From: a virus
Taxonomy: Duplodnaviria; Caudoviricetes
Strand: one strand, 5' to 3'
DNA length: 41,642 nt
Virus record (IMG/VR): IMGVR_UViG_3300027749_000208
Location: 1 to 41,642 of that record
Positions 7,599-32,309 of this stretch are shown here, piece by piece. Under the pieces are notes generated by a model, which made no database searches, was not told the origin of the DNA, and saw nothing but the letters and a program-made list of their open reading frames with translations. The first letter of the stretch is position 1, and each line of letters starts with the position of its first letter. The translations under genes and the position numbers were made by a program.

Positions 7599-7764
7599 AG
7601 GCTGCGTAGCAGAAACACTAACTTGTTTGTGTGTTTCGCTTAACTCACTTTCCTAACCGTAGGCTGTAGCCCCAAGGCGGAAGCCGTAGGTTAGGGCTTT
7701 ATTTAGGGTATCAGCCTAAGGGCTGATTGCTTACTAGCGAGGGGCGGAAATAAAGAAGCCCCTC

Positions 7765-7793
7765 ACTATAGTATTAGGTGTCCAGAAGGACAC
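7765..7793 (-). promoter_or_regulatory. Candidate late promoter: GACAC-N7-TATAGT on - strand, with GACAC part of the inverted repeat GTGTCC-AGAA-GGACAC
   Basis: Lies upstream of terL. GACAC is the known WhiA-binding motif; function is inferred. Confidence 0.4.
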
Positions 7794-7812
7794 TGTTGGA
7801 CATACATACGCA

Positions 7813-7828
7813 TGTGATTTACATCACA
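7813..7828. promoter_or_regulatory. Perfect CRP/GlxR-type site TGTGA-N6-TCACA
   Basis: tgtga tttaca tcaca in the intergenic region between the divergent late and early operons. Confidence 0.55.
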
Positions 7829-7970
7829 TATACCTGTAGCAGTATAAGTGCAGGTCAGAGCCTACATGACCCCCCTATCAAAGTTATGTAGGTCTCTACA
7901 TATAGGCATATACGCACGCATATTTAAAAACCCTGGGTTCGCTCTCTGTCGTTCGCTCCCCTAATAACAA

Positions 7971-8012
7971 TGCTTGCACGCTTGCCCTGCTTGCACGTTG
8001 CTTGCTTGCTAG
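7971..8012. repeat. Iterated GCTTGC/TTGC short repeats near the putative genome end or packaging region
   Basis: tgcttgcacgcttgccctgcttgcacgttgcttgcttgcta in non-coding DNA. Confidence 0.5.
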
Positions 8013-8383
8013 TAAGTGAGCAGGTCTATCTCGCTTGAGCGCGACTACTCTTTAAGCGCGGGGGCATACACAGCGCCCCCCCTCCTCGTTTAAACGCTGC
8101 CCGCATCGCAGCGCATGCAGCGCCAAGGTAGTTGAAAGTTAAACTACCTCATAAGTTACTCATTGGTAACATCGCTAAAACCAGTTAAAATCATGGGCGA
8201 CAGCGATTATGTGAAATCATGCAATGGCTAAAACCAGTATAAATCAATGCTTTCAGCGCCTTACTCGTGAGTAACTTAGCCATGGCGCATCTATTGGCGC
8301 TCAAGCCTTAGCCATGCCCGCCCCTAATCGGGGCACGAATTGAGGGCACAATTAGCCTTGTGAGCAGCACTTATGCAGGGTGC

Positions 8384-8412
8384 TTGATATTCCTACAGCA
8401 CGAGAGTATTCT
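8384..8412 (+). promoter_or_regulatory. Sigma70/SigA-type early promoter TTGATA-N17-TATTCT
   Basis: Near-consensus hexamers with a 17-bp spacer ~50 bp before the first early gene. Confidence 0.65.
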
Positions 8413-8460
8413 CCGCGTAGCGGGTTTAAACAGTAAGCCCCTCAACCGTAAGGACTGGCA

Positions 8461-9042
8461 ATGAATCGTGAACAATGGCTCAACGAGTTAGCGAATCAGG
8501 CCCTGCCTGTAATCGCTCGAACTCTCGATAGTTATGCTCAATTCCGCGAGGAGGAATCGGCTGTACGCCTCTCCTGTGGGTTCCCTGCTCAGCAAGGCAA
8601 GCGCAACAAGGTTGCAGCCTGCATAGTGCCTCCTACCGCCTCCGATGATTTCAGCGGGGAGATATTCGTATCCCCTACGATTTCGCAGGGCAACGAGGTT
8701 GCCCTCGCTGTGCTGCCCCTATTGTGCGCCACAGTGACAGGCGACTATCGCAAGGGCGCTGCCTATCGTGAGGCACTCAAGCGCAACCGTTTAAACGCTG
8801 CAAGCCTGCCTGCATGGGCTGCTGCAATCGTGTCAACCTTGCCCGCTTACCCTCACGCTGCAATCACGCTGCAGCCTCAAGATAAGCAGACTACCCGCCT
8901 CCTCAAGGTTGCCTGCTTAGGTGACCTAATGAATGGCGAACAGCATGCAGCCTACATTGTGCGAATCTCTCGCACTACCCTTGCCAATTATGGCAGCCCA
9001 ATCTGCCCACTATGTGGTGCAGCACTAGCGGAAGGAATCTGA
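8461..9042 (+). CDS. SprT-like (zincin-fold) phage protein with degenerate HExxH motif and C-terminal Zn ribbon
   Basis: Family motifs REQWL, VRLSCGFP, EIFVSP, YPHAA, KQTTRLLK, PICPLCG. The position expected for HExxH reads LPLLCA. Confidence 0.65.
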   Translation: MNREQWLNELANQALPVIARTLDSYAQFREEESAVRLSCGFPAQQGKRNKVAACIVPPTASDDFSGEIFVSPTISQGNEVALAVLPLLCATVTGDYRKGAAYREALKRNRLNAASLPAWAAAIVSTLPAYPHAAITLQPQDKQTTRLLKVACLGDLMNGEQHAAYIVRISRTTLANYGSPICPLCGAALAEGI

Positions 9043-9044
9043 CC

Positions 9045-9779
9045 ATGAGCGCAACCTACGGAATTGAACTAGAGATGAGCGACCTCTCAATCTCCTCAGC
9101 CCAAGCACGTTTAAACGCTATCGGCTTGAACTGGTCATGCAAGCCTGACGGTACCCGCGGGGTTACCGCGGAGGCTGTTAGCCCTATCCTTGCCTACACT
9201 GACCTAAGCGAGGGCAGCAAGGCAGCCCGCGCACTGGCTCAAGCAGGCGCAACAGTCAACAAGCAGACAGGCTTCCATGTGCACTTAGGCGCTGACCACT
9301 ACGGCCTAGAAGGTATCGCCCTCCTTGTGCAGAATTGGAATCTGGCTCATGAGACAATCGGGGCGCTTGTTGCACCCTCCCGTTTAAACAATCACTTCTG
9401 CAATTCTGTACCATTGAGTCAAATTGACTCATGGGTAGAGAATGTACGCGCAGGCAATATCCGCAACATGGGCAACGGAGGGCGCTACTACAGCCTCAAC
9501 CTTAACGCCTATGCAACGCATCGCACGGTGGAGGTTCGCCTACATCATGGCACGCTTAACGGTAGCAAGATTAAGGCATGGGCCGAGTTTTGCGGGGCCA
9601 TGGCTCAATTCTCCGCTGACGGGGGAATCCTAGATAGTCAATTCTCCAACATTGCAGACCGAGAGGGTGCCCGTTTAAACGCGGTACGAAATCTCCTAGA
9701 TATTCTCTCCGAGAATCATCTCGACATTGCAACAGCCTCTTATCTCAAGGGTAGAGCAGCAGACCTAAACGCCCGCTAA
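9045..9779 (+). CDS. Putative amidoligase (COOH-NH2 ligase, Amidoligase_2 family)
   Basis: YGIELE, PDGT, EAVSPIL, TGFHVH, RYYSLN, TVEVRLHHGTLN motifs; ATG 9045 after AAGGA SD. Confidence 0.88.
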   Translation: MSATYGIELEMSDLSISSAQARLNAIGLNWSCKPDGTRGVTAEAVSPILAYTDLSEGSKAARALAQAGATVNKQTGFHVHLGADHYGLEGIALLVQNWNLAHETIGALVAPSRLNNHFCNSVPLSQIDSWVENVRAGNIRNMGNGGRYYSLNLNAYATHRTVEVRLHHGTLNGSKIKAWAEFCGAMAQFSADGGILDSQFSNIADREGARLNAVRNLLDILSENHLDIATASYLKGRAADLNAR

Positions 9780-9786
9780 GCGGGCA

Positions 9787-9832
9787 GCCTGCCCCTAGTG
9801 GGTGAGCGAGGGTGCAATCCCCTCGGCAGGCA
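9787..9832 (+). ncRNA. tRNA-like mini-element (7-bp acceptor stem plus 5-bp T-arm, no anticodon arm)
   Basis: GCCTGCC(9787-93)/GGCAGGC(9825-31) plus discriminator A; GAGGG-TGCAATC-CCCTC T-arm; only 14 nt between the stems. Confidence 0.55.
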
Positions 9833-9899
9833 CTCATGGCGCAAGCCATGAACACGACAAGCACAACGCGAACTCGTGTTTAAACAGTAAGGACTGGAA

Positions 9900-9989
9900 A
9901 TGAATCTTTCAATCATAGACGGGCGCTCATTCTTAATCGTTGCAATCATTGCTGCCGTGTGGATTTGGTACTGGTGCGGTGAAAGATAA
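9900..9989 (+). CDS. Small membrane peptide (29 aa, MNLSIIDGRSFLIVAIIAAVWIWYWCGER)
   Basis: Manual translation; preceded by the AGGACTGG RBS motif; one hydrophobic helix. Confidence 0.55.
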   Translation: MNLSIIDGRSFLIVAIIAAVWIWYWCGER

Positions 9990-10155
9990 CGAATTGTTAT
10001 ACATCGTTGAAGGTGTAGACCCTAGCGGGCGCAAGTTCGCTGGGCTATACAACATCGAAGAAGCCCGCGACCTAGCGAGCGCTAATCGTTTAAACATAGT
10101 GCGTGACAGATACACGCATGCTGTGATACAATCAACTAATCAATCGAAAAGATAG
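9979..10155 (+). CDS. Hypothetical protein (GTG start, ~58 aa)
   Basis: In frame with track ORF 9940..10155; fills the gap in the early operon. Confidence 0.55.
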   Translation: MKDNELLYIVEGVDPSGRKFAGLYNIEEARDLASANRLNIVRDRYTHAVIQSTNQSKR

Positions 10156-10166
10156 GACTGGAAAAT

Positions 10167-10988
10167 ATGTGCGGAATTGCTGGATTTTGTTTAACGCCTG
10201 CCGAATGTGCAACCTCATTAGAGGTTAGCAACATGGCAGCACAGATGCTGCTTGATATTGAACACCGAGGCCAAGATGCCACTGGTGCATCATGGGTTAA
10301 CACTGGCACTAAGAAGCGGGCAATCTTAAAGCACGCTATCCCTGCCTCTCAATTCGTGCCAATCGTAGGCGATTACCTATGCGAGAACGCGCAGACTGCA
10401 ATCTTACACACAAGATACGCAACCAAAGGCAGCCCCAATAACCGCGACAATAATCACCCAATCGCACGGGGCAACATCGTGCTCACACATAACGGACACA
10501 TCAGCAATGACGATGAAGTGTTTAAACGCTTAGGTGTACAGCGCAACGCTCAAGTTGACAGCGAAGCAGCAGCAGCATTGCTTGCCTTCACTAGCAAGTA
10601 TCACCCCGCCGAAGTACTGGGCACTCTTAAGGGTGGCGCAGCCCTTGCATGGATTACATCTACAGATGCAGCAACGCTACATCTAGCACGCCTTGCCTCC
10701 TCTCCCTTGTGGGTAGGACAGACGACACGGGGTAGCCTTGTCTATGGCTCAACCTATGAAGTTATATTCAACGCAGCAATCATGCTCAATGACGACCTAT
10801 CATGGGAGTACGAAGTTGATAACGGAACTTATCTCAAGGTGCGTGACGGGCGCATCATCGAACACGAGACGTTTAAACCAGCACTCTCTGCCGTGTACAG
10901 CGTGGCATCGTGGCAAGATAAAAAGATAGACACGAGTTACAAAGCACGCGCACATCGCACAAGAATACAGGAACTACTGCCCTTCTAA
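10167..10988 (+). CDS. Class II (Ntn) glutamine amidotransferase
   Basis: N-terminal MCGIAG, HRGQDATG, HTRYAT, NNHP, HNGHISN, VDSE. Confidence 0.92.
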   Translation: MCGIAGFCLTPAECATSLEVSNMAAQMLLDIEHRGQDATGASWVNTGTKKRAILKHAIPASQFVPIVGDYLCENAQTAILHTRYATKGSPNNRDNNHPIARGNIVLTHNGHISNDDEVFKRLGVQRNAQVDSEAAAALLAFTSKYHPAEVLGTLKGGAALAWITSTDAATLHLARLASSPLWVGQTTRGSLVYGSTYEVIFNAAIMLNDDLSWEYEVDNGTYLKVRDGRIIEHETFKPALSAVYSVASWQDKKIDTSYKARAHRTRIQELLPF

Positions 10989-11001
10989 TCACTACAACAT
11001 C

Positions 11002-11030
11002 AACCCCTCGCAGAAATGCGGGGGGTTTTT
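11002..11030 (+). terminator. Intrinsic terminator
   Basis: AACCCCTCGCA-GAAA-TGCGGGGGGTT followed by a T-run. Confidence 0.85.
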
Positions 11031-11253
11031 GCTTGCCGCCAGGGGTTCGTTTCATTATGTGTTTAAACACATAGAGTTTATCTTCCCAGGCGGCTGACAT
11101 CTTGATGTTTAAACATGTGCCTGGTATGTTGCAAGCGGCTGCGTTTAAACAGAAAAAATAAATTAAAATCTTTTGAAATGTACTTGACCTGCATGTATCA
11201 GGCATGAGAAGATTCATCTATAGCAACCACGCTATACATAACAAAGGACTGAC

Positions 11254-11406
11254 ATGATTACTAACACAGATTTAATTGCGATAATCATCGCGCTAGTATC
11301 GGCTGGCTTAGTGCTTGCCATTGCACTACGAAAGAACTACTTACTGGAACAAGAGAACGCAAACCTCAAGCGCAGGATTAAGATTCTTAAGAAGGAGAAA
11401 GACTAA
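11254..11406 (+). CDS. Small membrane-anchored coiled-coil protein (50 aa, MITNTDLIAIIIALV...)
   Basis: Manual translation; AAGGACTGA RBS; TAATG coupling to the next gene. Confidence 0.7.
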   Translation: MITNTDLIAIIIALVSAGLVLAIALRKNYLLEQENANLKRRIKILKKEKD

Positions 11407-11591
11407 TGAGTACAGCAGGTAAAGCACAACAGCATGCAGTCAAAACTTTAGTAATGAAATACCGCACCGAGTACGAAGAACTATACCGCGCAGAAGTTAC
11501 GCGCCTTGGTGGAAACGTACGCCCTACAAAAGAACTACGAATTGCAAGACTCAAAGCACAGATAGAACAATTAGAAAGCGAAGGTGTTTAA
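11406..11591 (+). CDS. Hypothetical protein (61 aa)
   Basis: Coupled ORF with AAGGAG SD. Confidence 0.7.
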   Translation: MSTAGKAQQHAVKTLVMKYRTEYEELYRAEVTRLGGNVRPTKELRIARLKAQIEQLESEGV

Positions 11592-11593
11592 AC

Positions 11594-11866
11594 ATGAGTG
11601 TACATGCTGGTATCTACGCCGACAAAACTTACTCAGGCTGGCGCAACTATGAAACATGGAACTGTGCCCTATGGATTAACAACGACTATAAACTATACAT
11701 CTCTGCTTGTGCTTTCATGCAGGGATACAAAGGCAAGACACCTTACAAGACATGGATAAAGATTGCTGACCTAGAAGGCAAGCAAACTATAGACGGCGCA
11801 CGCTGGAGTGGTAAGAAACTATCTTACACTCAACTCAATAACATGATGAAAGAACTAGTGGAATAA
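11594..11866 (+). CDS. Conserved phage hypothetical protein (Y.GW.NYETWN.ALW family)
   Basis: YSGWRNYETWNCALWINND motif common in phage early genes. Confidence 0.7.
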   Translation: MSVHAGIYADKTYSGWRNYETWNCALWINNDYKLYISACAFMQGYKGKTPYKTWIKIADLEGKQTIDGARWSGKKLSYTQLNNMMKELVE

Positions 11867-12240
11867 TGAAACACCCAGAAGTTAAAGGCGTAGTGTTATT
11901 TACAGATGGCACTCACGAGGAACGCACGTTTAAACAACTCAAGGACTACCAAGATGCAGTCGGTGGACTCATTGAAATCGTAAAGTTATACGATGCAGCG
12001 GGCAAAGACTTAGCCACGGCCTATGTAAATGAGGAGGGGATTATGCTCAACCTACCGTTAAACGGATTCGGTGGTGCACTCTCTTTCATGCTGGGAAATA
12101 ACCCAATGCTAATGGGTAACATGATAGTAGTAGGCACCGATGATGGCGAGGGATATGACACAGACATAGACCTAATGCTATTGTCTTTCATTAAGCATGT
12201 GTTACCAACGAGTAAGGAATTAGAAGATGAATCTGTTTAA
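11866..12240 (+). CDS. DUF3846-like protein
   Basis: LKDYQDAVGGLIE...YVNEEG...LPLN...GNMIVVG pattern. Confidence 0.7.
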   Translation: MKHPEVKGVVLFTDGTHEERTFKQLKDYQDAVGGLIEIVKLYDAAGKDLATAYVNEEGIMLNLPLNGFGGALSFMLGNNPMLMGNMIVVGTDDGEGYDTDIDLMLLSFIKHVLPTSKELEDESV

Positions 12241-12670
12241 ACATATACACCCACATGCACGCATTTGGTTTATCACTGTACTAATTCTAATCGGAGTGTT
12301 GTTCGTGAACCCACGAGTGGAATATGTAATTCACCCACCTAAATCTCAGGTGCTTGCTTACTACACAAACGATTACCAACACTTCGCCATTGGCGAACTC
12401 ATCAAGCAGAACAAACTTGAGCAGTACCCATGCCTCTATGAACTATGGCAACGAGAGAGCAACTGGCGACCCGCTGCCGTTAACAAGAGAAGCAAAGCCT
12501 CAGGTATTGCACAACTCATGCCCAACACATGGCAAATACTTAAGGTTAAGCCAACGAAAGATGGGTTTAAACAGGTAACAATCGGATTGAAATATATTGA
12601 CCGACACTACGGGAAAGACGGCGGAATATGCAGAGCATATGCACATCACCTAGCAATGGGGTGGTACTAA
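12227..12670 (+). CDS. Membrane-anchored lytic transglycosylase (SLT-like, actinobacterial type)
   Basis: N-terminal TM helix; LWQRESNW, ASGIAQ, GLKYI..HYG, C-terminal GWY. Confidence 0.85.
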   Translation: MNLFKHIHPHARIWFITVLILIGVLFVNPRVEYVIHPPKSQVLAYYTNDYQHFAIGELIKQNKLEQYPCLYELWQRESNWRPAAVNKRSKASGIAQLMPNTWQILKVKPTKDGFKQVTIGLKYIDRHYGKDGGICRAYAHHLAMGWY

Positions 12671-12858
12671 TGGCACCTACAAACTACAACACATTGAAAG
12701 ATGAGATTGTCTTTCACCTTATTCAAAGCGGATACACATTCTCATCAGAGAACGGCGACCCCGTGGTAATCAGACCAATGAAGGTAGCAGTGCTGCTAGA
12801 TTCAGTGCTTGACTACATGATAGGGGCTGGCTATGCAACCACAACGAAACTCTCCTAG
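12670..12858 (+). CDS. Hypothetical protein (62 aa, MAPTNYNTLK...)
   Basis: TAATG coupling with the SLT gene. Confidence 0.6.
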   Translation: MAPTNYNTLKDEIVFHLIQSGYTFSSENGDPVVIRPMKVAVLLDSVLDYMIGAGYATTTKLS

Positions 12859-13243
12859 CGTAAAGTTTATCCACATGCTCAGCAATATACCGAGAGCATA
12901 CAAGCCACAATTCCACAGAGTTATGAAGTCAAAGGTAATAAATGGCTTGACCTACTACCGTTTAAACTACAATGCTAAAGCCTTCGAAGGTGCAGCATGT
13001 GCTGGTGCCGATACGGAAATGTTCTACCCCGATAGCGTGCAATTCAGCAGAGAAGAAGCCCTGTTCTATGCCACATTATGTAGTGATTGCCCCGTCAAAG
13101 CAGCATGCTTGGAGTGGGCACTAGCCCACGAAAGGCAGGGTGTATGGGCAGGAACCTCACCCGAAACACGAACTGCCCTACGCAAACGCCTTAAGATAGG
13201 ACTCAAAGACCCAAACGATTACACCGACTCAGAGTTGCGGTAG
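12833..13243 (+). CDS. whiB: WhiB-family Fe-S transcription factor (start uncertain, may be downstream)
   Basis: AAC...EMFYP...LCSDCPVKAACLEWAL...GVWAG motif. Confidence 0.9.
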   Translation: MQPQRNSPSVKFIHMLSNIPRAYKPQFHRVMKSKVINGLTYYRLNYNAKAFEGAACAGADTEMFYPDSVQFSREEALFYATLCSDCPVKAACLEWALAHERQGVWAGTSPETRTALRKRLKIGLKDPNDYTDSELR

Positions 13244-13246
13244 TTG

Positions 13247-13255
13247 TGATAGAGT
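13247..13255 (+). promoter_or_regulatory. Extended -10 promoter TGnTAGAGT upstream of the candidate sRNA
   Basis: tg-a-tagagt lies 7-8 nt before the first hairpin. Confidence 0.45.
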
Positions 13256-13261
13256 AAGTGT

Positions 13262-13353
13262 TAGGTACTCAGCCCCACGAAGGGGAAGCGCGGGATTGAG
13301 TGCCCATAAAGAAGCCCCACCACAGGAACCAGTCCTCCTGTAAGTGGGGCTTC
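13262..13353 (+). ncRNA. Candidate two-hairpin small RNA; hairpin 2 may also terminate the converging - strand operon
   Basis: Hairpin 1: GGTACTCA...TGAGTGCC with loop AAGGGGAA. Hairpin 2: GAAGCCCCAC/GTGGGGCTTC plus ACAGGA/TCCTGT with loop ACCAGTCC. Confidence 0.5.
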
Positions 13354-13365
13354 GCTATGTTTAAA

Positions 13366-13908
13366 CTATAATTCCTTAGACTTAGCAAGCATGAATACTT
13401 CATCTGCTAAATCAGATAGTGAACCAGCGTTAAGGATTACATCATCAAAGCGCCAGTTATCCATCGCAGTTTCAGATGCATGTAAGTTAACTGGCTTATG
13501 ATTCTCACGCTGCACACGCCACACTTGCCCGCCCTTATCAACGATAGCCTGTGCCTCATTAGGAAAACGAACATCGTTGAAAACGATTCGCTCATCATTG
13601 GTTATCTGTTTAAACGCAATGTCTACCCAAAAAGATTCACCAAACATTTTTCGCCCAACTTCGGTACCAAATACTTGTAGCAATCTGCGTGCATCGGTAT
13701 CTTTCTTAGCCCACTCCCACCCATATACATCTACTGCTTCATCAAGGTACATCAAGCGAGATGAGTATGCCACTATCGGATTCAATGCTAACAAAGCCTT
13801 ACGCATAGGCTCAGCGAATGAACGGCGTTCGTATTCATAGTTAAGTAGCAATAGTTCTGCAACTGTATCTTTACCCGATTGTGCGTACCCACTCAAACCA
13901 ATTATCAT
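13366..13908 (-). CDS. Deoxynucleoside monophosphate kinase
   Basis: IIGLSGYAQSGKDT, SFAEP, RRLLQVFGTEVGR, DVRFPNE, HASE. Confidence 0.92.
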   Translation of the reverse strand: MIIGLSGYAQSGKDTVAELLLLNYEYERRSFAEPMRKALLALNPIVAYSSRLMYLDEAVDVYGWEWAKKDTDARRLLQVFGTEVGRKMFGESFWVDIAFKQITNDERIVFNDVRFPNEAQAIVDKGGQVWRVQRENHKPVNLHASETAMDNWRFDDVILNAGSLSDLADEVFMLAKSKEL

Positions 13909-13911
13909 TGA

Positions 13912-14034
13912 CTATAACCCCCACCAAATAGCGATTACAACTGGACCAAAGAACAACTCAACACATCTCAAACCATCATAGTAAGCAGCACCAACCATAA
14001 ACATGCGCCAATTAAACTCAAATACAAACTTCAT
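13912..14034 (-). CDS. Small hydrophobic protein (40 aa, MKFVFEFNW...)
   Basis: ATGA overlap with the sigma-like gene; AAGGAG SD. Confidence 0.5.
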   Translation of the reverse strand: MKFVFEFNWRMFMVGAAYYDGLRCVELFFGPVVIAIWWGL

Positions 14035-14705
14035 TCTTGCTCCTTTAATTCTGCCTGCGCTTGTGCGTTGGACTTGCGGTACCTTCTGTTGTTCCATATC
14101 GGTGCATCACCACCGAGTCTATCTTGTAACTTAGTAAGGGCACGACTAACACGCTTGCGTATGGCTTCCTCAGAGGCAGTGTATTCAATGGCTAATGCAT
14201 CGAAGTCAGTACCACCATCATCAAACCTGCGCTGGAGTAGTAACCTATCTGCATCGTTTAAACGCCTCAATGCCTGGGCCACATCAGAGAGCAGAGCAAG
14301 CCTATTGTTTCCTTCACTTGGCTTGGTACTTCTACTAATGAACTCACTATCGGCAGGTGTTGAGGACTGCACCCAATACTCATAGTGCCACACATCTTTG
14401 AGTAACTCTTGTAGTACCTCGTGTGTGTAGTAGAAAGAATCACTTGGACTTGACTTAGATTTATACGCTCGTTCTTTTGCTGCAAACTTTTGACCCTCGT
14501 TGTTAAAGGTACGGCGCAGTTTAAACACGAGGCTGTCTTGCGCTTCCCATTCTTCTATCTTGTGCCAGTGTTCCAATGCCCATACATTCAGGTGTTGATA
14601 CACATCATCAGAGGATACAATGTTGCGATGCACTCGCGCTGTGCGCTGGCTCGCCATCTTTGCTACCTTAAATATCTGGTCTAATAGTTCTTCTTTGTTA
14701 CTCAT
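14031..14705 (-). CDS. Sigma-70-family sigma factor-like protein (region 4 HTH)
   Basis: ALRRLNDADRLLLQRRF...DALA...SEEAIRKRVSRALTKL matches region 4; N-terminal DDVYQ helix is region 2-like. Confidence 0.75.
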   Translation of the reverse strand: MSNKEELLDQIFKVAKMASQRTARVHRNIVSSDDVYQHLNVWALEHWHKIEEWEAQDSLVFKLRRTFNNEGQKFAAKERAYKSKSSPSDSFYYTHEVLQELLKDVWHYEYWVQSSTPADSEFISRSTKPSEGNNRLALLSDVAQALRRLNDADRLLLQRRFDDGGTDFDALAIEYTASEEAIRKRVSRALTKLQDRLGGDAPIWNNRRYRKSNAQAQAELKEQE

Positions 14706-15087
14706 TGATTAACTTCCTCGTTGCTGTTAGTAAATCTTCTACCGTAATGAGGAAGCCCTTGCTTAAGTTTGGTGGTATCTCACATGTTATTTCCCTGCCA
14801 AAGTTCTCAACTGCATACTTAAGTGTTGGTGTTGTCACCATCACGACACTCTTTTCTAATACGAACGCCCAGTAGTCTGCCTCTGTTACGTTTAAACCCG
14901 AAGGTTGCCATGACATAGACTTCCTAAAGAAACACTCAACCTCAATGTAAAGGTTGTTAGTTTTCCACCACTTCCTATCACGCTTGACTTCAATAGTCCT
15001 ACCACCAGTGAGTAAGTCCTCAACAAGTTGCTCACCCTTGCGACCATATCCGAAGTCTAAATCAAATGATGAGCGATTAACCATCAC
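14698..15087 (-). CDS. PD-(D/E)XK-like nuclease-fold protein
   Basis: G.KGE...IEVKRD...NLYIE...SGL..T.ADYWAF pattern. Confidence 0.6.
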   Translation of the reverse strand: MMVNRSSFDLDFGYGRKGEQLVEDLLTGGRTIEVKRDRKWWKTNNLYIEVECFFRKSMSWQPSGLNVTEADYWAFVLEKSVVMVTTPTLKYAVENFGREITCEIPPNLSKGFLITVEDLLTATRKLINE

Positions 15088-15246
15088 CTAGCCCCCATCA
15101 TTAAGCCCAAGCAATTCCCTAAGAGTCTTACTTTTTGGGTCATTGCGGTGCTTGAAAGACCAGAGCCAACTCTGGCACTGGTAATAAAACTCCTTAACAA
15201 AGTGTGCTATTGTCATTCCTATTGCTATTTGTAACCATAGTTCCAT
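15088..15246 (-). CDS. Small hypothetical protein (52 aa, MELWLQIAIG...)
   Basis: Manual translation; AAGGAG SD. Confidence 0.6.
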   Translation of the reverse strand: MELWLQIAIGMTIAHFVKEFYYQCQSWLWSFKHRNDPKSKTLRELLGLNDGG

Positions 15247-15314
15247 TGTGTTCTCCTTAGTTGTAGTCTAGATATAGTGGTCGTGGTATTATGTTAAGTT
15301 GTACTCTTCTCTGT

Positions 15315-15554
15315 TCATCCCAACTCCTTCTCTATGGCTCGGATAGTCCTGCAAGGATAGACAACATAGGTGTTGCAGTATTCATCACAGAATAACCCTG
15401 AAAGGCTATGGCAATCTATGTACTCTGCTGAACAACCACCAGTTTCATCAGGCTTATGCAACTCCACTACTGCACGAAGTGCTGCATTGTCCTGACTCCC
15501 TGCGTACCTACGATTAGTTGAACTTAATTTTTTCAGCAATTCATCGTGTGTCAT
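15315..15554 (-). CDS. MTHDE...AIEKE family small Cys-containing protein, copy 3
   Basis: MTHDELL...LRAVVELHKPDE...IRAIEKELG; ATGA coupling. Confidence 0.7.
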   Translation of the reverse strand: MTHDELLKKLSSTNRRYAGSQDNAALRAVVELHKPDETGGCSAEYIDCHSLSGLFCDEYCNTYVVYPCRTIRAIEKELG

Positions 15555-15757
15555 CGCATCTCCTTTTCTATGGCTTGGATTGTTTCGCAAAGGTATTGAT
15601 TGCATACACCGCAATGGTTGAACTCATCAGGCTTATGCAACTCCACTACTGCGCGAAGGGCAAACCAAGAAGCATTATCTCTACGGCAGGATTCACAATC
15701 ATCTCCACATTTTGTGAAATTGTCGTCTATCTCTGCCAACAATTCATTGTGTGTCAT
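15551..15757 (-). CDS. MTHNE...AIEKE family small Cys-containing protein, copy 2
   Basis: Shares a 29-bp exact repeat (15624-15652 = 15445-15473) with copy 3. Confidence 0.7.
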   Translation of the reverse strand: MTHNELLAEIDDNFTKCGDDCESCRRDNASWFALRAVVELHKPDEFNHCGVCNQYLCETIQAIEKEMR

Positions 15758-15906
15758 TTAAGTTCCTCCTCTATGGCTTTGATTCCCTCTAACACTTTGC
15801 CCCATACTGCGGAGCCATAGTTAGTATTGAAGTATTCAAACATCTCTAAGCCTGCTTGAGTTTTAATATCAGACTTATCCGATTGATATGTTTCATCGTG
15901 TGTCAT
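15754..15906 (-). CDS. MTHDE...AIEEE family small protein, copy 1 (50 aa)
   Basis: Manual translation MTHDETYQSDK...IKAIEEELK; ATGA coupling. Confidence 0.6.
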   Translation of the reverse strand: MTHDETYQSDKSDIKTQAGLEMFEYFNTNYGSAVWGKVLEGIKAIEEELK

Positions 15907-15908
15907 GT

Positions 15909-16526
15909 TTAAACACCTGCTCGCTTGCGTAAACCATCGGCACCTTCGTTGAGGTACACATCATTTACATCAGCACCCTCAGGCATGAACACAGGGAACA
16001 CGTTATCTAGTTCACGACTAAGGTTCTTAGCCATCTCTCTGCCTGCATTATCACCATCACATAGCAGCACAATCTTGCCCCAGTCTGCCAGTACACGAGC
16101 GTAAAAAGGTTTCCAGTTGTTAGCCCCTGGCAACCCGACTGCATTGAAGCCAGCCTGCGTTGCTACTACAGTGTCAAGTTCTCCCTCACATATTACGAGG
16201 ACTTCTGACTCCTCGTATAACGCTTGTACGTTATAGATATGCGTGGTCGCTCCTGGCCTTGACAGATACTTTGGTCCATTATCCATGACGATACTTCTAA
16301 ATCGTAGGTCAATGGGTCCAGCGGGTGTAAGATAAGGGATTGATAACTTCCCAGTGTACGGTTCGTGTCCAATCTCAGGCTCCTTTACGAAGCCGAGGCG
16401 AAACGTACGAGCCGTCTCCGCTGTTATACCGCGACCCATTAGATACGGAAGTATCTCGTCTAGGTTTTGCTCGTAGTTCACCGTTGCTTTCGCCAGTAAT
16501 TCTCTCTGCGATTTGCTTAGCCTCAT
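15909..16526 (-). CDS. DNA primase, TOPRIM part
   Basis: YL..RGI, IPY, KYL, ICEGELD, CDGDNAG, DVND. Confidence 0.9.
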   Translation of the reverse strand: MRLSKSQRELLAKATVNYEQNLDEILPYLMGRGITAETARTFRLGFVKEPEIGHEPYTGKLSIPYLTPAGPIDLRFRSIVMDNGPKYLSRPGATTHIYNVQALYEESEVLVICEGELDTVVATQAGFNAVGLPGANNWKPFYARVLADWGKIVLLCDGDNAGREMAKNLSRELDNVFPVFMPEGADVNDVYLNEGADGLRKRAGV

Positions 16527-16755
16527 TGAATGGCACTCCTTCTTTCTTCATAATGATGGAGTACACATCACCTGCCATGTCGCAGCCGAAGCATCTGAAT
16601 CCACCGTTGTCTATGTTTAAACGGGCTGACTTAACTCTATCACCATGGAAGGCGCATCGCACTGTAATCCACCCGCGTTTTTGTGCGGGCAATTCGAATC
16701 CATAGTGTTCTAATACTTTTCCTATGTCATGTTTAGAGTTTGGCGAGAGCATCAC
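16375..16755 (-). CDS. DNA primase, CHC2 zinc-finger part
   Basis: CAFHGD...SA...FRCFGC...GD...EG..F.EA. Confidence 0.88.
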   Translation of the reverse strand: MMLSPNSKHDIGKVLEHYGFELPAQKRGWITVRCAFHGDRVKSARLNIDNGGFRCFGCDMAGDVYSIIMKKEGVPFNEAKQIAERITGESNGELRAKPRRDTSVSNGSRYNSGDGSYVSPRLRKGA

Positions 16756-17098
16756 TAAGCCTTTGCACTACATAAGCCTCACTAATCCCCTTGTTTGAAG
16801 CCTTAATAACTACCAATGGCGTAGGCGCTACCTTTAAATGCTTAGCCTTGCGATAGTTCTCTGCCTCTACATCTGCCTCACGCAACCAACCCGATAGGTC
16901 AATCTTTCCATCACGGCGTGGTGCCTTGGCTTCGATTACATATATGTCATTGTCTGTTGGTAGTGCAACATCACCAATGTCGTTGCGCCCTGCTCGTGGT
17001 AGACGTTGAGCGTTTAAACCCTGTGTCATCAACCAATCTGCAAGTTCAATCTCAAAGGCTGCACCTCTGCGCTTGTTACTTTTCTGTGGTGTTGTCAT
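16733..17098 (-). CDS. Holliday junction resolvase (Hjc-like PD-(D/E)XK)
   Basis: NKRRGAAFE...R..RAG.NDIGD...IEAK. Confidence 0.8.
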   Translation of the reverse strand: MTTPQKSNKRRGAAFEIELADWLMTQGLNAQRLPRAGRNDIGDVALPTDNDIYVIEAKAPRRDGKIDLSGWLREADVEAENYRKAKHLKVAPTPLVVIKASNKGISEAYVVQRLSDALAKL

Positions 17099-17810
17099 TA
17101 GACTGTGCCTCCGCTGCTTTCGCTGCTTGCCAATACAATGCATAGAAGTTCTCATCGAAGGCAAATCGTTTCATGTGTTTTGCAATGGCACCTGTATGTG
17201 CATGCACATCAATACCTGCTGCTTTTAACTTACGGAAGAACACAATGTCCTCACCTACAAACTTTTCTCCTAAGTTCTCAACCTCAGCAAACATAGACTG
17301 GTCAGGGAACTTGGCTCGTAGTAGTGGAACAACTGACTTATGCATGAGCGTAAGTCCTAGTCCAGCACAATCAACCTTAACCACTTGATTTTTAGGTAAC
17401 GGATGCAAGTATTTAATCTGGTGCTCATGGCTACCTTCATCAAATAGAGCAGGCATAGGTTGCATCAATGATGATTCCATCTGTTTAGATATAAAGTACA
17501 CACCACTAACTACTGGACGGGCTATCTTATCTGCCGTATTCCATAGTAGTTCTAGTATGTCAAGGGTTAACACTATGTCGGAGTCAACCCATAACAACCA
17601 GTCTGTTTTAATACTGTCAGCCCACATGTCAAAGAGGGCTTGGCGCTGCCTGCCTATCTGATTACCTTGCACACGCACGGCATTATGAATACCAATTCCA
17701 CGCGTTGGTGCTGTGATAGTTGTATAGAGTAAACCTTCGGTAAACTTACCATCAGTCAAACCATTATCACACCAACCAATAGATAGTGTTTCTTTACTTG
17801 AGTGTGCCAT
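17076..17810 (-). CDS. Glycosyltransferase family 2-like (GT-A fold) protein
   Basis: RQ...DWLLWVDSD (DxD), VVSGVY, AGLGLTL, GEDIVFF, H...H.K. Confidence 0.8.
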   Translation of the reverse strand: MAHSSKETLSIGWCDNGLTDGKFTEGLLYTTITAPTRGIGIHNAVRVQGNQIGRQRQALFDMWADSIKTDWLLWVDSDIVLTLDILELLWNTADKIARPVVSGVYFISKQMESSLMQPMPALFDEGSHEHQIKYLHPLPKNQVVKVDCAGLGLTLMHKSVVPLLRAKFPDQSMFAEVENLGEKFVGEDIVFFRKLKAAGIDVHAHTGAIAKHMKRFAFDENFYALYWQAAKAAEAQSNDNTTEK

Positions 17811-17812
17811 GT

Positions 17813-18172
17813 TTAAACTTCTCCCTCTGAAATGTCTAGTACTTGCATTGCGTTCTCTGCCATCTCTTTCCAAGCCGTAGCCATCTCAAAGAGTTGGTCT
17901 GCTAAAGCGGTAGTACAATCATTAGCACGGCACTCTTGTAAGTGCTTACCTAATTGACCAACATAGTCTGCAAACTGTATTGACTCTAACCATATTGCCG
18001 AAGGGTTATAGATTTGTTTCGTTGCATCTTCGATGCGGTCCATAACCTCAGGCAATTCATGTCTAAGTAGTTCCTTCACTTCCGATGGAATGTTTGACTT
18101 CTCCACCATGGCTAGGATTTCCTCTGGTGTATTCGGCAGTTCCCGTTTCAAGAAACTGTTTAAACTCGTCAT
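17813..18172 (-). CDS. Hypothetical protein (start uncertain)
   Basis: ORF within the - strand operon; stop lies inside the GTTTAAAC junction at 17811. Confidence 0.55.
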   Translation of the reverse strand: MTSLNSFLKRELPNTPEEILAMVEKSNIPSEVKELLRHELPEVMDRIEDATKQIYNPSAIWLESIQFADYVGQLGKHLQECRANDCTTALADQLFEMATAWKEMAENAMQVLDISEGEV

Positions 18173-18389
18173 CTGTGAGTTCCTGGAATCTACCAGTCTC
18201 CTTTTTCTTCCAAACAATCGCTTTCCATCCAATCGTATAGGTCGCATTTGCTGGCACTAACATCAACTGTGCCTTCATATCAGTTAGCAACTGCTTGGTG
18301 GGTATTGTTAATTCATTTGTTACTTGTTTTAGTGGAACCTCACCACCGTTTTCGGCTACGGTTAGTTCCCATTCACTTGCGTTACTCAT
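18063..18389 (-). CDS. Hypothetical protein
   Basis: ATGA-coupled to the helicase gene. Confidence 0.6.
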   Translation of the reverse strand: MSNASEWELTVAENGGEVPLKQVTNELTIPTKQLLTDMKAQLMLVPANATYTIGWKAIVWKKKETGRFQELTDDEFKQFLETGTAEYTRGNPSHGGEVKHSIGSEGTT

Positions 18390-19165
18390 GCTTGCACCAT
18401 GTCCAATACACTCATACTTGCGGGGTCATAAGAAAGCCAGACTGGTGAACCACCACTGGCATCAGCAGGACCGTAACGATTTTTAACTGCGTTAACTCCC
18501 ATAGTTGCTAACTGCGGATAGACAGTCAGGATAAGGCTTGGCGTTTGTGCTACCTTGCCATGTAATGCAAAGCGTGGAGGACAAGGGTTACCTTGTACAC
18601 CCTCGCTAGTGTGATGACAGACAAGCACTGCTGCGCCTGTCTCTCTAGCCCACCACTTGAGTTCCTTCATCAGTGTGCGTAATCCGCCCCACTCATCTTG
18701 TCCATCAAGGGTTACATCAACTGCATTGTCTAAGACAATCAAGTGCACATCTTCACCAAGGCGCTCTCGCGCAGCAAGGACTGCATCTTCAATGTCTTTT
18801 AATGTTGGTGCTGAATCAAACTCCCACATGATGTGGTCAGCAGGCTTGAGCATTTGTGCTGCCCATTCCCTGTCTTGGTCCATCAAAGGCTCAACCTCTT
18901 GTTGAGGTTTACCTGTGAGCATAGCCAATAGGCGTAGGCTCATGGTGTGTGAGTGTGTATCAGCAGATATGTACAGCGTGGGTACCTTGGCATGTACTGC
19001 CAGTGCTAAAGCAAATGTAGATTTTCCAGCCCCTGGAGGGCCAGCAACCATGCTTACCTCACCGTAACGAAATGAAATCTGTTGCGCTCCAAGAGAGTGC
19101 CACACTGTAGGCAGCGTAGCACCCCCTTGGGATGCGGTCTTAATAGCCCGCGATAGTAAGCGCAT
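18386..19165 (-). CDS. DnaB-like (SF4) replicative helicase
   Basis: GEVSMVAGPPGAGKST, LYISAD, IVLDN, CHH, VKNRYG. Confidence 0.88.
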   Translation of the reverse strand: MRLLSRAIKTASQGGATLPTVWHSLGAQQISFRYGEVSMVAGPPGAGKSTFALALAVHAKVPTLYISADTHSHTMSLRLLAMLTGKPQQEVEPLMDQDREWAAQMLKPADHIMWEFDSAPTLKDIEDAVLAARERLGEDVHLIVLDNAVDVTLDGQDEWGGLRTLMKELKWWARETGAAVLVCHHTSEGVQGNPCPPRFALHGKVAQTPSLILTVYPQLATMGVNAVKNRYGPADASGGSPVWLSYDPASMSVLDMVQA

Positions 19166-19167
19166 GA

Positions 19168-19575
19168 TTATCCCTTAGCGGAACAAGCAGTCTCTCGTGG
19201 ATTTGGGCAAGCAAAGAACGACTTGTATGGCTTACCCACTTTACTAATGCCTGCAGGAACCATACGCATAGGCAAGCCATGGTCGCAGGTTGGTGAAACA
19301 CTAGGTGTTGATTGATACGGAGTTGTTGTGGTGTTAACTGCAGTTGGTGCAATAGCACCGTAATGTGCCTGTTGTGCCACAGGTTGTGGATTTAATCCAG
19401 CACTTGATAGTGCACCCAAGGCTGTAACTGTCTGCTCAAGAGCAACGATGTTAACGATGCGTGTTGTTAATGAATCAATGTACTGGTCTAACTCTGCCTC
19501 ACTCCATGCACGGACATTAAGAAGTGTTCCGCCAGGGGTCTTGAGGTTAATCTGAAATGGTGCTTCGTTACTCAT
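19168..19575 (-). CDS. Conserved actinophage protein with C-terminal Zn-binding motif
   Basis: PTCDHGLPM...GISK.GKPY..FFACP; lies between nuclease and helicase. Confidence 0.65.
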   Translation of the reverse strand: MSNEAPFQINLKTPGGTLLNVRAWSEAELDQYIDSLTTRIVNIVALEQTVTALGALSSAGLNPQPVAQQAHYGAIAPTAVNTTTTPYQSTPSVSPTCDHGLPMRMVPAGISKVGKPYKSFFACPNPRETACSAKG

Positions 19576-20419
19576 GGACTTCGCTTTCTGTTAGTTCGGG
19601 ATAGAGATATGAATCTTTGCCGTTGACGGCATAACAAGCATGATTGACTGAACAAGTACCACACATGAATCCAGTGTTAGGCATGAAGATGTTGTTCTCC
19701 ACTGCCAGTTTAAACGACTTAACACGGGAGCCAAGGCGTGACTCTGTATAGTGTGAGAGGTCGGCGGGGCTACTTAATTCCCCAGTCCTAGCCATCCAGT
19801 AGGCACCCTTGACAGGGAGCATACCAAATACTTTCTCTACCAGTATTGCGTAAGTGCCCAACTGTTCGTTGGACTTAGGTTCTTGTGCGCTTGTCTTGAT
19901 GTCAATGACAGTGAGTTCACCGTCAGGTGAGACCATGAGGCGGTCAAGATAGCCTCGCACTTTTACTCCATGTACTTCTTTTAGGAGTTCAGTTTCGATT
20001 GCTGGCCTTCCATCAGGCATAATGAATACCTGATACCCGCTTTCTTGGCGGAATTGAATCCAGTAATCAACCATCTTTGGACCATTGGCAAGCCACCATG
20101 AAGCATCTTCCTTGTTTGGATATGCCTTAGTTGACCTACCGCCTGCCCTGAATGGCATGCCAGTATCGCTGGCTGCGTACTCTTTGTTCCACTCGTTGGT
20201 AAATACCACCGTAGGGTCAAAGACTCCCGCATCAGCGGGCCATGTGTCATATATTTCAGTTGCAGTGTGTACAGATTTACCGCCTACTAACCAGTAGGAA
20301 GGGTTCTCAGTTACGTTCTGCACTCGGCTAAGGTAATAGTTCCAGCCACAGTTGAGCCAAGTTGTAATGGCGCTGTGACTGACGTAATCCTTGCCAGTTA
20401 GATTTTGTAATGTTGTCAT
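19568..20419 (-). CDS. RecB/Cas4-like PD-(D/E)XK exonuclease
   Basis: SHS...CG..Y, G.SVH, RGYLDR, IDIKTS, QL..Y, C..C.....C Fe-S motif. Confidence 0.88.
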   Translation of the reverse strand: MTTLQNLTGKDYVSHSAITTWLNCGWNYYLSRVQNVTENPSYWLVGGKSVHTATEIYDTWPADAGVFDPTVVFTNEWNKEYAASDTGMPFRAGGRSTKAYPNKEDASWWLANGPKMVDYWIQFRQESGYQVFIMPDGRPAIETELLKEVHGVKVRGYLDRLMVSPDGELTVIDIKTSAQEPKSNEQLGTYAILVEKVFGMLPVKGAYWMARTGELSSPADLSHYTESRLGSRVKSFKLAVENNIFMPNTGFMCGTCSVNHACYAVNGKDSYLYPELTESEVHE

Positions 20420-20431
20420 GTTTCTCCTTCA

Positions 20432-20508
20432 ATAGAGGAGACTACTACACAATCTCTCCTCTATCGAGGTCTGTGCATAATTATTTTATCGGCGTGTCTC
20501 GGCGTGTC
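20432..20508. promoter_or_regulatory. Divergent control region: 10-bp inverted repeat ATAGAGGAGA/TCTCCTCTAT plus tandem TCGGCGTGTC x2 (GACAC boxes on - strand)
   Basis: Inverted repeat 20432-41/20455-64; direct repeats 20489-98 and 20499-508 at the strand switch. Confidence 0.55.
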
Positions 20509-20776
20509 GCACACAAATGTAGAAAAACCATGTAGTACACTCCTGTTCGTGCAGAGCAAGGGTGTATTGGCGAGGTTCCACCGAGCCAAACGAGTTAAGC
20601 AGAAGCCTAGCATAGACCTGCGAGGAATACCAAGCCATGCCTGTATATGTGGCTCATTGGTATTTAAAGTCAAGTGCATGTTTGAGGACAATAACATTTC
20701 GTTATGGTTTGTTGATGCAGAGTGCGACCAATGCGGAGCGTTGGTAACCGTGCCTACCCCAGTAGATGTGCTCTAA
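20504..20776 (+). CDS. Zinc-finger hypothetical protein (true start probably downstream)
   Basis: DLRGIPSHACICGS...ECDQCG...PTP. Confidence 0.65.
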   Translation: MSHTNVEKPCSTLLFVQSKGVLARFHRAKRVKQKPSIDLRGIPSHACICGSLVFKVKCMFEDNNISLWFVDAECDQCGALVTVPTPVDVL

Positions 20777-20937
20777 TGGAAAAGACTTTAGAGATACACC
20801 TTGCTGAATTGCGTGAGAAGATAGCCAAGGACATTGAAGATGGCGGATACGTTTGGTTCAATAGCGAATCAAGTAATATCATTGTCAGAAAGATTATCAG
20901 TCAAGCAGCAGAGTATGCCAGAGGAAATGGTGAGTAA
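20776..20937 (+). CDS. Hypothetical protein (53 aa, MEKTLEIHLAELRE...)
   Basis: TAATG coupling. Confidence 0.6.
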   Translation: MEKTLEIHLAELREKIAKDIEDGGYVWFNSESSNIIVRKIISQAAEYARGNGE

Positions 20938-20938
20938 C

Positions 20939-21028
20939 ATGAAGAAAGAAAACCTAGTCAGTATCTTAATCTTCACACTCATGGTGTTAAGTTTTGCCAT
21001 GGGCTACATCTCTAAAGCATACGGATAA
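20939..21028 (+). CDS. Small membrane peptide (MKKENLVSILIFTLMVLSFAMGYISKAYG)
   Basis: Hydrophobic 29-aa ORF directly after the preceding stop. Confidence 0.45.
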   Translation: MKKENLVSILIFTLMVLSFAMGYISKAYG

Positions 21029-21034
21029 CAGCCT

Positions 21035-21208
21035 TTGATTTACCCATACCAATGCACCAAGTGCAGCATCACTGTTGAACTTGAGCGTTCTATCCATGCC
21101 GAAGCAGATGCTCCTATGTGCACACCATGCGGTGAGCCTATGTCACGCATATTCAGCGTGCCAGGAGTTAAGTTCAATGCCCCTGGTTTCTACTCAACGG
21201 GTGGCTAA
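21035..21208 (+). CDS. FmdB-family zinc-ribbon protein (TTG start, 57 aa)
   Basis: Manual translation: IYPYQCTKC...MCTPCG..M.RIFS...KF...GFYST. Confidence 0.8.
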   Translation: MIYPYQCTKCSITVELERSIHAEADAPMCTPCGEPMSRIFSVPGVKFNAPGFYSTGG

Positions 21209-21774
21209 TGGATTATCCTAACTGGTTTATAGACACCAATGCCATAGACAACTTCAAGCGCCACCTGCTGCCCCTTAAGGGCAAGCCAGTGGATTTCCTG
21301 CAGATAGGTGCCTATACGGGTGATGCATCCAAGTGGATGCTAGATGAAATCTTGAGCCACCCCGACTCAACCTTGACTGATGTTGATACATGGGAAGGTA
21401 GCGATGAAGCACTCCACGAAAACATGGATTTCGATGATGTATTTAAAACATACATAACAAAGGTTGGCAACTATGGCAACCTTACCTACCGCCAAGAAAC
21501 AAGCGTTGACTTCTTTGGAAGTAACAAAAAGTTATATGATTTTATCTACATAGATGGCGACCATACAGCCTTCGGTGTAATGAAAGACTTGATGAGTTCA
21601 TACTCAGCCCTTAAGTCTGGCGGGATTATTGCATGTGATGATTACCAATGGTCAGAAGGCAAGGGTAATTACTTTGACCCACGCCCTGCCATTGATGCTT
21701 TTTTCAACATAACACGCGACTATTTTACAGTCATTGAAATTGGCTGGCAAGTATGGTTTAAACATGCAGCATAA
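21208..21774 (+). CDS. Class I SAM-dependent methyltransferase (Methyltransf_24-like)
   Basis: LQIGAYTG, DVDTW, YDFIYIDGDH, LK.GGII..DDY. Confidence 0.85.
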   Translation: MDYPNWFIDTNAIDNFKRHLLPLKGKPVDFLQIGAYTGDASKWMLDEILSHPDSTLTDVDTWEGSDEALHENMDFDDVFKTYITKVGNYGNLTYRQETSVDFFGSNKKLYDFIYIDGDHTAFGVMKDLMSSYSALKSGGIIACDDYQWSEGKGNYFDPRPAIDAFFNITRDYFTVIEIGWQVWFKHAA

Positions 21775-22093
21775 GTTGCTTCTTAAGAACCCAACTTTGC
21801 GCTTTGGCATCTGTATCATTTGTGGCCCTACAAAATTAAAGAAGAAACAGTACGGCTGGTCGTGTCGTACTAAGTACAACCAATACCGCTCTAGTCATTA
21901 CAAGTTAAAGAAACTGCATTGTGAACTATGCGACTTTGTAGCAGAGCACCGTGCCCAGTTAGATGTGGACCATATAGACGGTGACCACGATAACAATGAA
22001 CCTGAGAACTTACAGACTTTATGTGCTAACTGCCACCGTCTTAAGACAGTAAACAATAAAGATTGGGAAAGCAAAAAAGCCCCCCGCAATTAA
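21764..22093 (+). CDS. HNH endonuclease
   Basis: CELC...LDVDHIDGDHDNN..ENLQTLCANCHRLKT. Confidence 0.9.
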   Translation: MQHKLLLKNPTLRFGICIICGPTKLKKKQYGWSCRTKYNQYRSSHYKLKKLHCELCDFVAEHRAQLDVDHIDGDHDNNEPENLQTLCANCHRLKTVNNKDWESKKAPRN

Positions 22094-22105
22094 GCGAGGG
22101 GCTTT
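22073..22105. terminator. Intrinsic terminator at converging operons (U-tract on - strand)
   Basis: AAAAAAGCCCCCCGC-AATTAA-GCGAGGGGCTTT. Confidence 0.8.
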
Positions 22106-22119
22106 GTCTGTTTAAACTA

Positions 22120-30852: not shown

Positions 30853-30862
30853 TACTTACTCC

Positions 30863-30991: not shown

Positions 30992-30993
30992 GA

Positions 30994-32254: not shown

Positions 32255-32273
32255 TTATTCTCCTTTTAAGCGC

Positions 32274-32309
32274 AGAGGGCGGGCGAAAGGAAACTAACTC
32301 CCGCCCTCT
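32274..32309 (-). terminator. Stem-loop after the major capsid gene (no U-tract; attenuator or mRNA stabiliser)
   Basis: AGAGGGCGGG/CCCGCCCTCT perfect 10-bp stem. Confidence 0.55.

Follow-up and report, generated by a model that had tools for sequence, protein, structure and literature searches.

The closest described systems are the stoperators of the Cluster A mycobacteriophages, in which the repressor (of L5 or Bxb1, for example) has 20-30 or more sites genome-wide, most of them in genes and some in promoters; the sites are 13 bp long, asymmetric and oriented with transcription, and are read by the helix-turn-helix repressor of a temperate phage (PMC6550527). When bound, that repressor halts elongation of transcripts and confers immunity. 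We describe here an array of the 8-bp palindrome GTTTAAAC in virus record IMGVR_UViG_3300027749_000208, the complete 41.6-kb record of a freshwater actinophage-type podovirus whose DNA is present in freshwater metagenomes (positions 1-41642, together called the window), and a zinc-ribbon protein encoded within the array as its likely reader. As in Cluster A, many of the 37 window sites (25) lie wholly in coding DNA, some are at predicted promoters, and the word diverges between lineages together with the protein. Unlike the stoperators, the sites are 8 bp long, palindromic or unoriented, and graded from one end in podoviruses, the partner is an SprT-like zinc-ribbon protein rather than a helix-turn-helix repressor, and no integrase was found in the window. 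Because site length, orientation and protein fold differ, the array could at most work like the Cluster A system.

Cluster AZ phages are temperate and homoimmune, members have cos ends, and their repressor was left unidentified (PMC8758107). SprT has been named a candidate repressor of these phages, and the N-terminally truncated Liebe makes clear plaques (10.1101/2025.05.26.655371). The main text of that preprint on the AZ/EH SprT reports no cognate site, and neither 'TAAAC' nor 'operator' occurs in it. The window copy differs from the AZ/EH protein in having no HExxH motif.

The window-type protein can also be set beside SPRTN and ArdC. SPRTN binds DNA structures without sequence specificity. 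SPRTN (Spartan, PDB 6MDW/6MDX) and the window type both have a metalloprotease fold with a small zinc-binding domain after it, whereas in the window type this domain is a ribbon, for which a specificity of 8 bp is inferred and which is able to stand alone. ArdC is similar in joining a DNA-binding domain to a zincin. To our knowledge, no cognate site array is known for ArdC or ArdA, which occupy the early region of array-less relatives; there is no array in relatives G008, G014 and E7.

No published description of the sites was found in the literature covered, which was mostly titles and abstracts, with subscription papers thinly represented and bioRxiv supplements outside it; by that literature the pairing of array and ribbon is undescribed. 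The pairing would supply the DNA site recognised by a domain family that is large and so far uncharacterised, and that occurs on plasmids and in phages infecting several classes of bacteria.

The array and its selection

The original prediction had counted about 37 copies of the word by hand, and an exact match count gave the same total and the same distribution (19 in 8088-13366, 12 in 13608-22117 and 6 elsewhere). The sites are as follows.

8088..22117, no strand: main array, 31 exact copies of GTTTAAAC starting at 8088, 8424, 8789, 9109, 9382, 9673, 9878, 10088, 10520, 10871, 11061, 11107, 11143, 11586, 11928, 12235, 12565, 12960, 13359, 13608, 14256, 14519, 14890, 15907, 16615, 17012, 17811, 18158, 19708, 21756 and 22110
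29720..41338, no strand: five outlying copies in late genes, starting at 29720, 30649, 31387, 36194 and 41331
3045-3052: sixth outlying copy

Dinucleotide shuffles of the window contained 0.94 copies on average and 3 at most (n=100), and GTTTAAAC was the most over-represented 8-mer of the whole window. Inside genes the word is read in two frames, x-L-N and x-F-K. Synonymous shuffles within genes (n=2000) gave 2.07 +/- 1.37 copies in coding sequence with a maximum of 8, as against 26 in the real sequence, where one of the 25 coding sites is counted in two overlapping open reading frames (ORFs). The enrichment thus survives a codon-preserving shuffle, and the claim that the constraint acts on DNA rather than on protein is supported by the two frames and by the use of words in sister lineages described below. 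Only 11 one-mismatch variants are present in the entire window, so the word has to be taken as exact. The 23 sites of 8088-14890 had a mean gap of 309 bp with a coefficient of variation (CV) of 0.41, compared with 0.94 for random placement, and a CV this low occurred in 0 of 20000 simulations. Of the quasi-periodicity proposed earlier the evenness was confirmed, but a fixed period was not demonstrated. The array is real, selected at the DNA level and densest over about 10 kb from the gap on the terminase side.

We also noticed that sites often occupy the spacer between the ribosome-binding site and the start codon (11586, 15907 and 17811 in the window; 2154, 2375, 2611, 3789 and 4658 in the phage Venkman), which is probably the cheapest neutral slot for them.

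Words in the terminase relatives

Eighty terminase loci were fetched, and 46 of them had informative upstream DNA. Of these, 25 carried GTTTAAAC, 2 GTCTAAAC, 12 GTCTTAAK and 1 GTGTAAAC, and no word was found in 6. In whole records of the relatives the words were mutually exclusive and the profile was alike. The gradient begins just upstream of the terminase; pooled over six genomes, there were 14-24 sites per kb bin up to 7 kb, 10-12 up to 10 kb and 0-6 thereafter, the density continuing across the convergent operon border (at about 5.7 kb) and falling before the helicase. The relatives have this profile in common, but in sister lineages the word is spelled GTCTAAAC or GTCTTAAK.

Within the first 10 kb, genomes with GTTTAAAC used their own word in 96 of 117 codon opportunities and the sister word in 0 of 109, while GTCTTAAK genomes used their own in 55 of 86 and the sister word in 0 of 12. 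This reciprocal use indicates lineage-specific selection at the DNA level. The late genes of the six GTTTAAAC genomes had the word in 45 of 72 opportunities; since they are under selection too, the gradient is one of selection strength. Codon opportunities themselves were more frequent in carriers than in sister phages (2.8 vs 0.47 per kb), and in G013 the homologous sites were converted to GTCTAAAC, with K changed to R twice in site codons (LFKQ to LFRQ, AFKR to AFRH). Both observations show a selection that reaches as far as the protein sequences.

GTCTTAAK requires 4 changes on a quick terminase tree, 3 of them forced by starred branches, whereas all 66 SprT loci with an RNTN ribbon contained at least 3 copies of GTCTTAAK. 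The word follows the SprT/ribbon gene and not the terminase tree. The array-less records G008, G014 and G017, searched whole, had no ribbon gene; the early region of G008 carries ArdC (PF08401 + PF18818). A reading of the sister word as the 10-bp palindrome GTCTTAAGAC was rejected, the actual word being GTCTTAAK. In another locus (L077, 1-3665) the DnaA-box-like TATCCACA occurs seven times upstream of the terminase, together with four copies of GTGTAAAC and a divergent ribbon.

The first early gene

8461..9042, plus strand: first early gene, whose product of 193 residues is SprT-like, ends in a zinc ribbon and is the likely array reader; contains the site at 8789
8716..8730, plus strand: degenerate protease motif P-L-L-C-A (residues 86-90), aligned with H-E-x-x-H of the homologues
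8875..9039, plus strand: zinc-ribbon domain (KQTTRLLK..C..YIVRISR..G.P.CP.C), predicted DNA-binding module

By tblastn the protein had SprT-like homology to 102 phage records, with an SprT-like protease annotation on most of the matches listed. The homologues match PF10263, and the window protein itself has no Pfam match; its best Foldseek match, a weak one (E=0.04), was to PDB 6MDW/6MDX, a DNA-protein-crosslink protease. The gene had been labelled SprT-like in the original prediction, but its probable role as reader was overlooked. As PLLCA replaces HExxH, the window protease is predicted to be catalytically dead.

HExxH has been lost in several lineages. In GTTTAAAC and GTCTAAAC phages the first early ORF encodes an SprT-like protein with a C-terminal zinc ribbon and no HExxH, while GTCTTAAK phages have a different SprT with HExxH intact and an RNTN ribbon. 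In G004, G012 and G019 the ribbon is encoded alone (about 55 residues, with its own ribosome-binding site) and the array is kept. The ribbon is thus the part of the SprT-like protein that is retained. Where ribbon and amidoligase meet in G004, some 1.0-1.2 kb upstream of its terminase, about 120 bp are directly duplicated; the duplication is close to the record's end-to-start join and is probably the terminal overlap.

The ribbon family comprises 2424 cluster representatives at E<=0.001. The AlphaFold2 model of the ribbon has a pLDDT of 78; it had no Foldseek match at E<=0.001, no solved structure was related to it by sequence, and its best VIA match (Z 3.3) was to ribosomal zinc ribbons. Zn_ribbon_SprT (PF17283) was not among the 25 of 34 families listed for 45 ribbons, and an Atlas feature score of 0.75 is taken as a lead only.

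Word and ribbon in unrelated phages and plasmids

The unrelated cultured phages Venkman, Yang, Percival, Crosby, VroomVroom, Arya and R5C have a ribbon together with GTTTAAAC or GTGTAAAC. There are 34 copies of GTTTAAAC in Venkman (1.7 expected), 20 of GTGTAAAC in Yang (0.08 expected), 14 copies in the Percival array, 19 within 23.6 kb in that of Crosby (0.02 expected), 18 in that of VroomVroom, and five of GTTTAAAC each in Arya and R5C (the latter in 23.7 kb). Plasmid pUT1 has 2 copies in 22.8 kb and a Pseudomonas viciae plasmid has seven of GTGTACAC. The ribbons of Dismas, Armstrong and CN2 are degenerate, and these phages lack an array. In a second SprT-ribbon group, 79 of 80 loci had at least 3 copies of GTTTAAAC, although the group is largely one clade and these are not 80 independent cases. 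When the search was made from the word alone, 10 of 18 non-clade loci with at least 10 copies contained a ribbon; 7 of the 8 ribbon-less loci were fragments, 15-49% complete, and the other was a 440-kb record at 25% GC. Among 80 near-random viral loci a ribbon was inside one, which bears an array, and a second array locus has a ribbon elsewhere in its record.

The spelling of the word co-varies with the ribbon allele across unrelated phages and the two plasmids, and the same pairing recurs in phages whose hosts are Actinomycetes or alpha-, beta- or gammaproteobacteria. The ribbon very probably binds the word directly, and the array very likely represents the cognate sites of the zinc-ribbon family. 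A simple residue code holds in part: ribbons with QS/TTR go mostly with GTTTAAAC, QGTR with GTTTAAAC and/or GTGTAAAC, RNTN with GTCTTAAK, QPTR with ATTTAAAC and QSKR with GTGTACAC, while the QTTR loci L177, L228 and L231 also hold some GTGTAAAC. A binder of 50 residues with natural specificity variants could serve as a tool.

In the P. viciae plasmid (NZ_CP123772.1; locus L370, 7889-16965), long repeated promoter blocks lie beside the SprT gene and five of them bear CGTGTACACG; two further copies lie in the stretch from traK to the relaxase operon, the expected position of oriT.

Host genomes and a possible marking of phage DNA

The word was not enriched in any of 401 Actinomycetes genomes (0-19 copies per genome; one unpublished genome, G311, included), and the window outnumbers every one of them. 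Small Actinomycetes genomes, which are host candidates by size and GC only (46-48% in five examined), were mildly depleted (139 vs 163 expected in 31 genomes, 94 vs 133 in 24). In a 600-kb sample, partly picked for depletion, GTTTAAAC was the third most depleted of 166 palindromic 8-mers, and the indication of host avoidance is weak. In the same sample (L373-L402) the most depleted hexamers were sigma-A -10-like (TATAAT, TACCAT, TACAAT, TAAGAT, TACACT). No Lsr2 was found in the 31 small genomes, and counter-silencing of Lsr2 was rejected for this reason; the hexamer depletion suggests that these streamlined genomes, in which no Lsr2 was found, strongly avoid cryptic promoters.

A Chi-like or 'self' tag had been among the functions proposed, and the lack of enrichment in the 401 genomes speaks against a Chi-like or methylation tag of the host. 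Chi signals are asymmetric, biased in orientation and over-represented in the host chromosome; the word is palindromic and is not over-represented in Actinomycetes chromosomes, among which the true host is not identified, and it tracks a phage gene across several host classes. We give very little credence to the related explanation that a host protein or methylase reads the word and the link with the ribbon is hitch-hiking. The word is a known restriction-enzyme site, which we take to be that of PmeI, and it is mildly depleted in small genomes. The pairing, on the other hand, spans Actinomycetes and three proteobacterial classes, close relatives change the word along with the phage gene, and the only ribbon in the 31 small genomes (G349, locus L403) has four sites within 3.1 kb.

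As the window has more copies than any of the 401 genomes, phage DNA would be told from host DNA by the word. In the main rival to the reading favoured below, the ribbon would coat incoming phage DNA through the array as a protective self-tag, with HExxH-intact forms tethering an SPRTN-like protease that strips host defence proteins (restriction, silencing or other) from that DNA only. We regard this as possible but rather doubtful. The weak SPRTN-like fold match keeps it in play, the ribbon was nearly always fused to SprT in the 30 long representatives examined, the P. viciae gene lies beside tra genes with seven copies of CGTGTACACG, and the sites of Yang (a Cluster AZ phage), Percival and Crosby are even genome-wide (CV 0.44-0.47, P<=0.004). 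Relatives without an array have genes against restriction in their early region, namely ArdC (G008) and, in Planktophila phage E7, a homologue of ArdA (PMC10202952). Yet the lineage whose arrays are densest has a protease that is dead or lost altogether, and a whole genome has to survive while the strongest selection covers 10 kb; in addition, no Lsr2 was found in the 31 small genomes, and the phage is already entirely without AGCT, CCGG and GATC. In its broadest form, also tentative, the system would be a widespread barcode-and-reader module of phages and plasmids, in which a zinc ribbon of about 50 residues with allele-specific 8-bp specificity marks the element's own DNA by a word rare in the host and tethers an SPRTN-like protease or, after loss of the protease, forms a bare coat. 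If true, no earlier case of a protease tethered to DNA and guided by sequence would precede it, and the immunity system that Cluster AZ/EH phages seem to lack would also be explained.

Sites at predicted promoters and possible control of early genes

8384..8431, plus strand: predicted ribbon-gene promoter (TTGATA-17-TATTCT, 8384-8412; consensus match only), followed after 11 bp by the site 8424-8431, which is predicted to serve as an autoregulatory operator
11061..11189, plus strand: three-site cluster (46 and 36 bp apart) after the terminator 11002-11027, ending 33 bp upstream of the predicted -35 TTGACC (11184), across an A-tract

In all 10 relatives with GT[TC]TAAAC a site lies within or just after the predicted ribbon-gene promoter, and the same was found in Yang, Percival and VroomVroom; two additional Percival promoters have a site inside the -35/-10 spacer. 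The layout of the three-site cluster is repeated in six relatives, 33-40 bp from a predicted -35. This placement of the sites points to regulation, although autoregulation alone is no proof that control of transcription is the main job.

The cluster also bears on a role in replication or packaging, in which replication proteins of the host would be loaded at iteron-like sites by the A-tract (11061-11183), or the array would organise the DNA that is packaged last. The conservation of 3-5 clustered sites next to an AT-rich tract, and the lack of a DNA polymerase among the annotated window ORFs, would suit it. We nevertheless hold it to be very unlikely, as the sites are mostly dispersed through genes, and Yang, Percival and Crosby have their own polymerase and no such clusters.

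The reading that we favour, with slightly less than even confidence, is that the array is a self-limiting, stoperator-like repressor or roadblock system on early DNA. Silencing by stoperator-like sites was one of the functions first proposed, and with the shielding of entering DNA it is what the data leave standing of them. Host RNA polymerase would first transcribe the ribbon gene (8461-9042), on the arm that is likely first into the cell. The ribbon protein would fill the array and only then shut its own promoter, so that its amount would scale with genome copy number. Protein bound every 300 bp or so would throttle rightward early transcription and read-through into the convergent replication genes. 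Supposing that the ribbon binds the word, this sequence of events seems to us evenly balanced between right and wrong. The protease domain would not be needed for such a role in the window lineage. In temperate members (Clusters AZ and EH) silencing in the lysogen and immunity to superinfection could both come from ribbon and array, which makes the ribbon protein a candidate for the Cluster AZ immunity repressor; cultured phage-host pairs make this question directly and cheaply testable.

A number of observations weigh against a repressor or roadblock. Some concern the promoters: of 4 GTCTTAAK genomes only 1 had an exact site within the 170 bp that precede the gene, the predicted promoters are consensus matches that do not exceed chance in the region (17 found, 22.1 expected), and at the second early promoter the clustered sites are on the upstream side of the -35, a position that would also suit an activator. 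Others concern the arrangement of the sites, since asymmetric words occur in both orientations (6/14 in Yang, 6/8 in Percival, 11/8 in Crosby), unlike stoperators, and density tracks distance from the end and not operon borders, hardly any sites falling in the genes for helicase, SSB-like protein and exonuclease, which belong to the same leftward operon. Avoidance of the sister word, which would be expected if binding represses, was not significant (0 vs 3.1, P about 0.05). Loci L285, L146 and L155 have a ribbon and no array, and the GTCTAAAC ribbon shows no obvious residue difference from GTTTAAAC ribbons. Finally, neither an integrase nor a repressor was among the Pfam/PHROG matches of 54 scanned window ORFs, Arya has its own CI-like repressor, and the Liebe truncation points to the protease half, which is dead in the window protein.

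The likely genome end and a possible role in entry into the cell

5736..7598, minus strand: terminase large subunit, with about 49% identity to Streptomyces phages of the Beephvirinae; marks where the array starts
7599..8460, no strand: non-coding gap from the terminase to the first early gene; likely physical genome end

A distance of 679 bp separates the start of the terminase from the end of the genome in the cultured relative Immanuel3, so the gap 7599-8460 of the window likely holds the end. Contig ends were about 4-fold denser within 500 bp upstream of the terminase (12 ends, 23.5 kb at risk), which is weak evidence because assembly breaks fall in spacers too. The early arm would then be last packaged and first ejected. 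The array had been thought to start at a genome end and decay away from it; the decay is shared by relatives, and a start at the end is plausible.

T5 and T7 enter the cell stepwise. The original prediction had suggested a protein that pulls in the DNA, and newly made ribbon could bind emerging DNA and so ratchet or time a stepwise entry. From the likely entry end the plateau extends over about 10 kb, past the border between the convergent operons, and the unrelated L319, L162 and Venkman have the same end-anchored layout. We consider this unlikely all the same: from ejection physics as generally understood, a ratchet would be needed most on DNA that enters late. Siphoviruses, moreover, have uniform arrays, and plasmids carry the gene and the sites.

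Apart from the ribbon gene and the array, the window encodes WhiB, a sigma-like factor, a split primase, a DnaB-like helicase, an amidoligase and a glutamine amidotransferase; the scan of 54 ORFs mentioned above gave no DNA polymerase match either. Its terminase is 46% identical to that of OX376640 (by name Planktophila phage E7, PMC10202952). The host is likely a member of the Nanopelagicales, and a scan of genome contigs for the host found no close prophage. AGCT, CCGG and GATC are wholly absent from positions 1-41642 (230, 62 and 98 expected) and occur freely in five candidate host genomes. The ends of the window (1-905 and 40636-41642) overlap by about 1 kb and match only at 1-192 (94%) and 762-905 (99%). 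They seem to carry different alleles of a segment that varies within a single giant virion protein (open frame 3200-3, which continues into 37479-41450), and an ADP-ribosyltransferase domain (PF03496) sits in the right-end allele.

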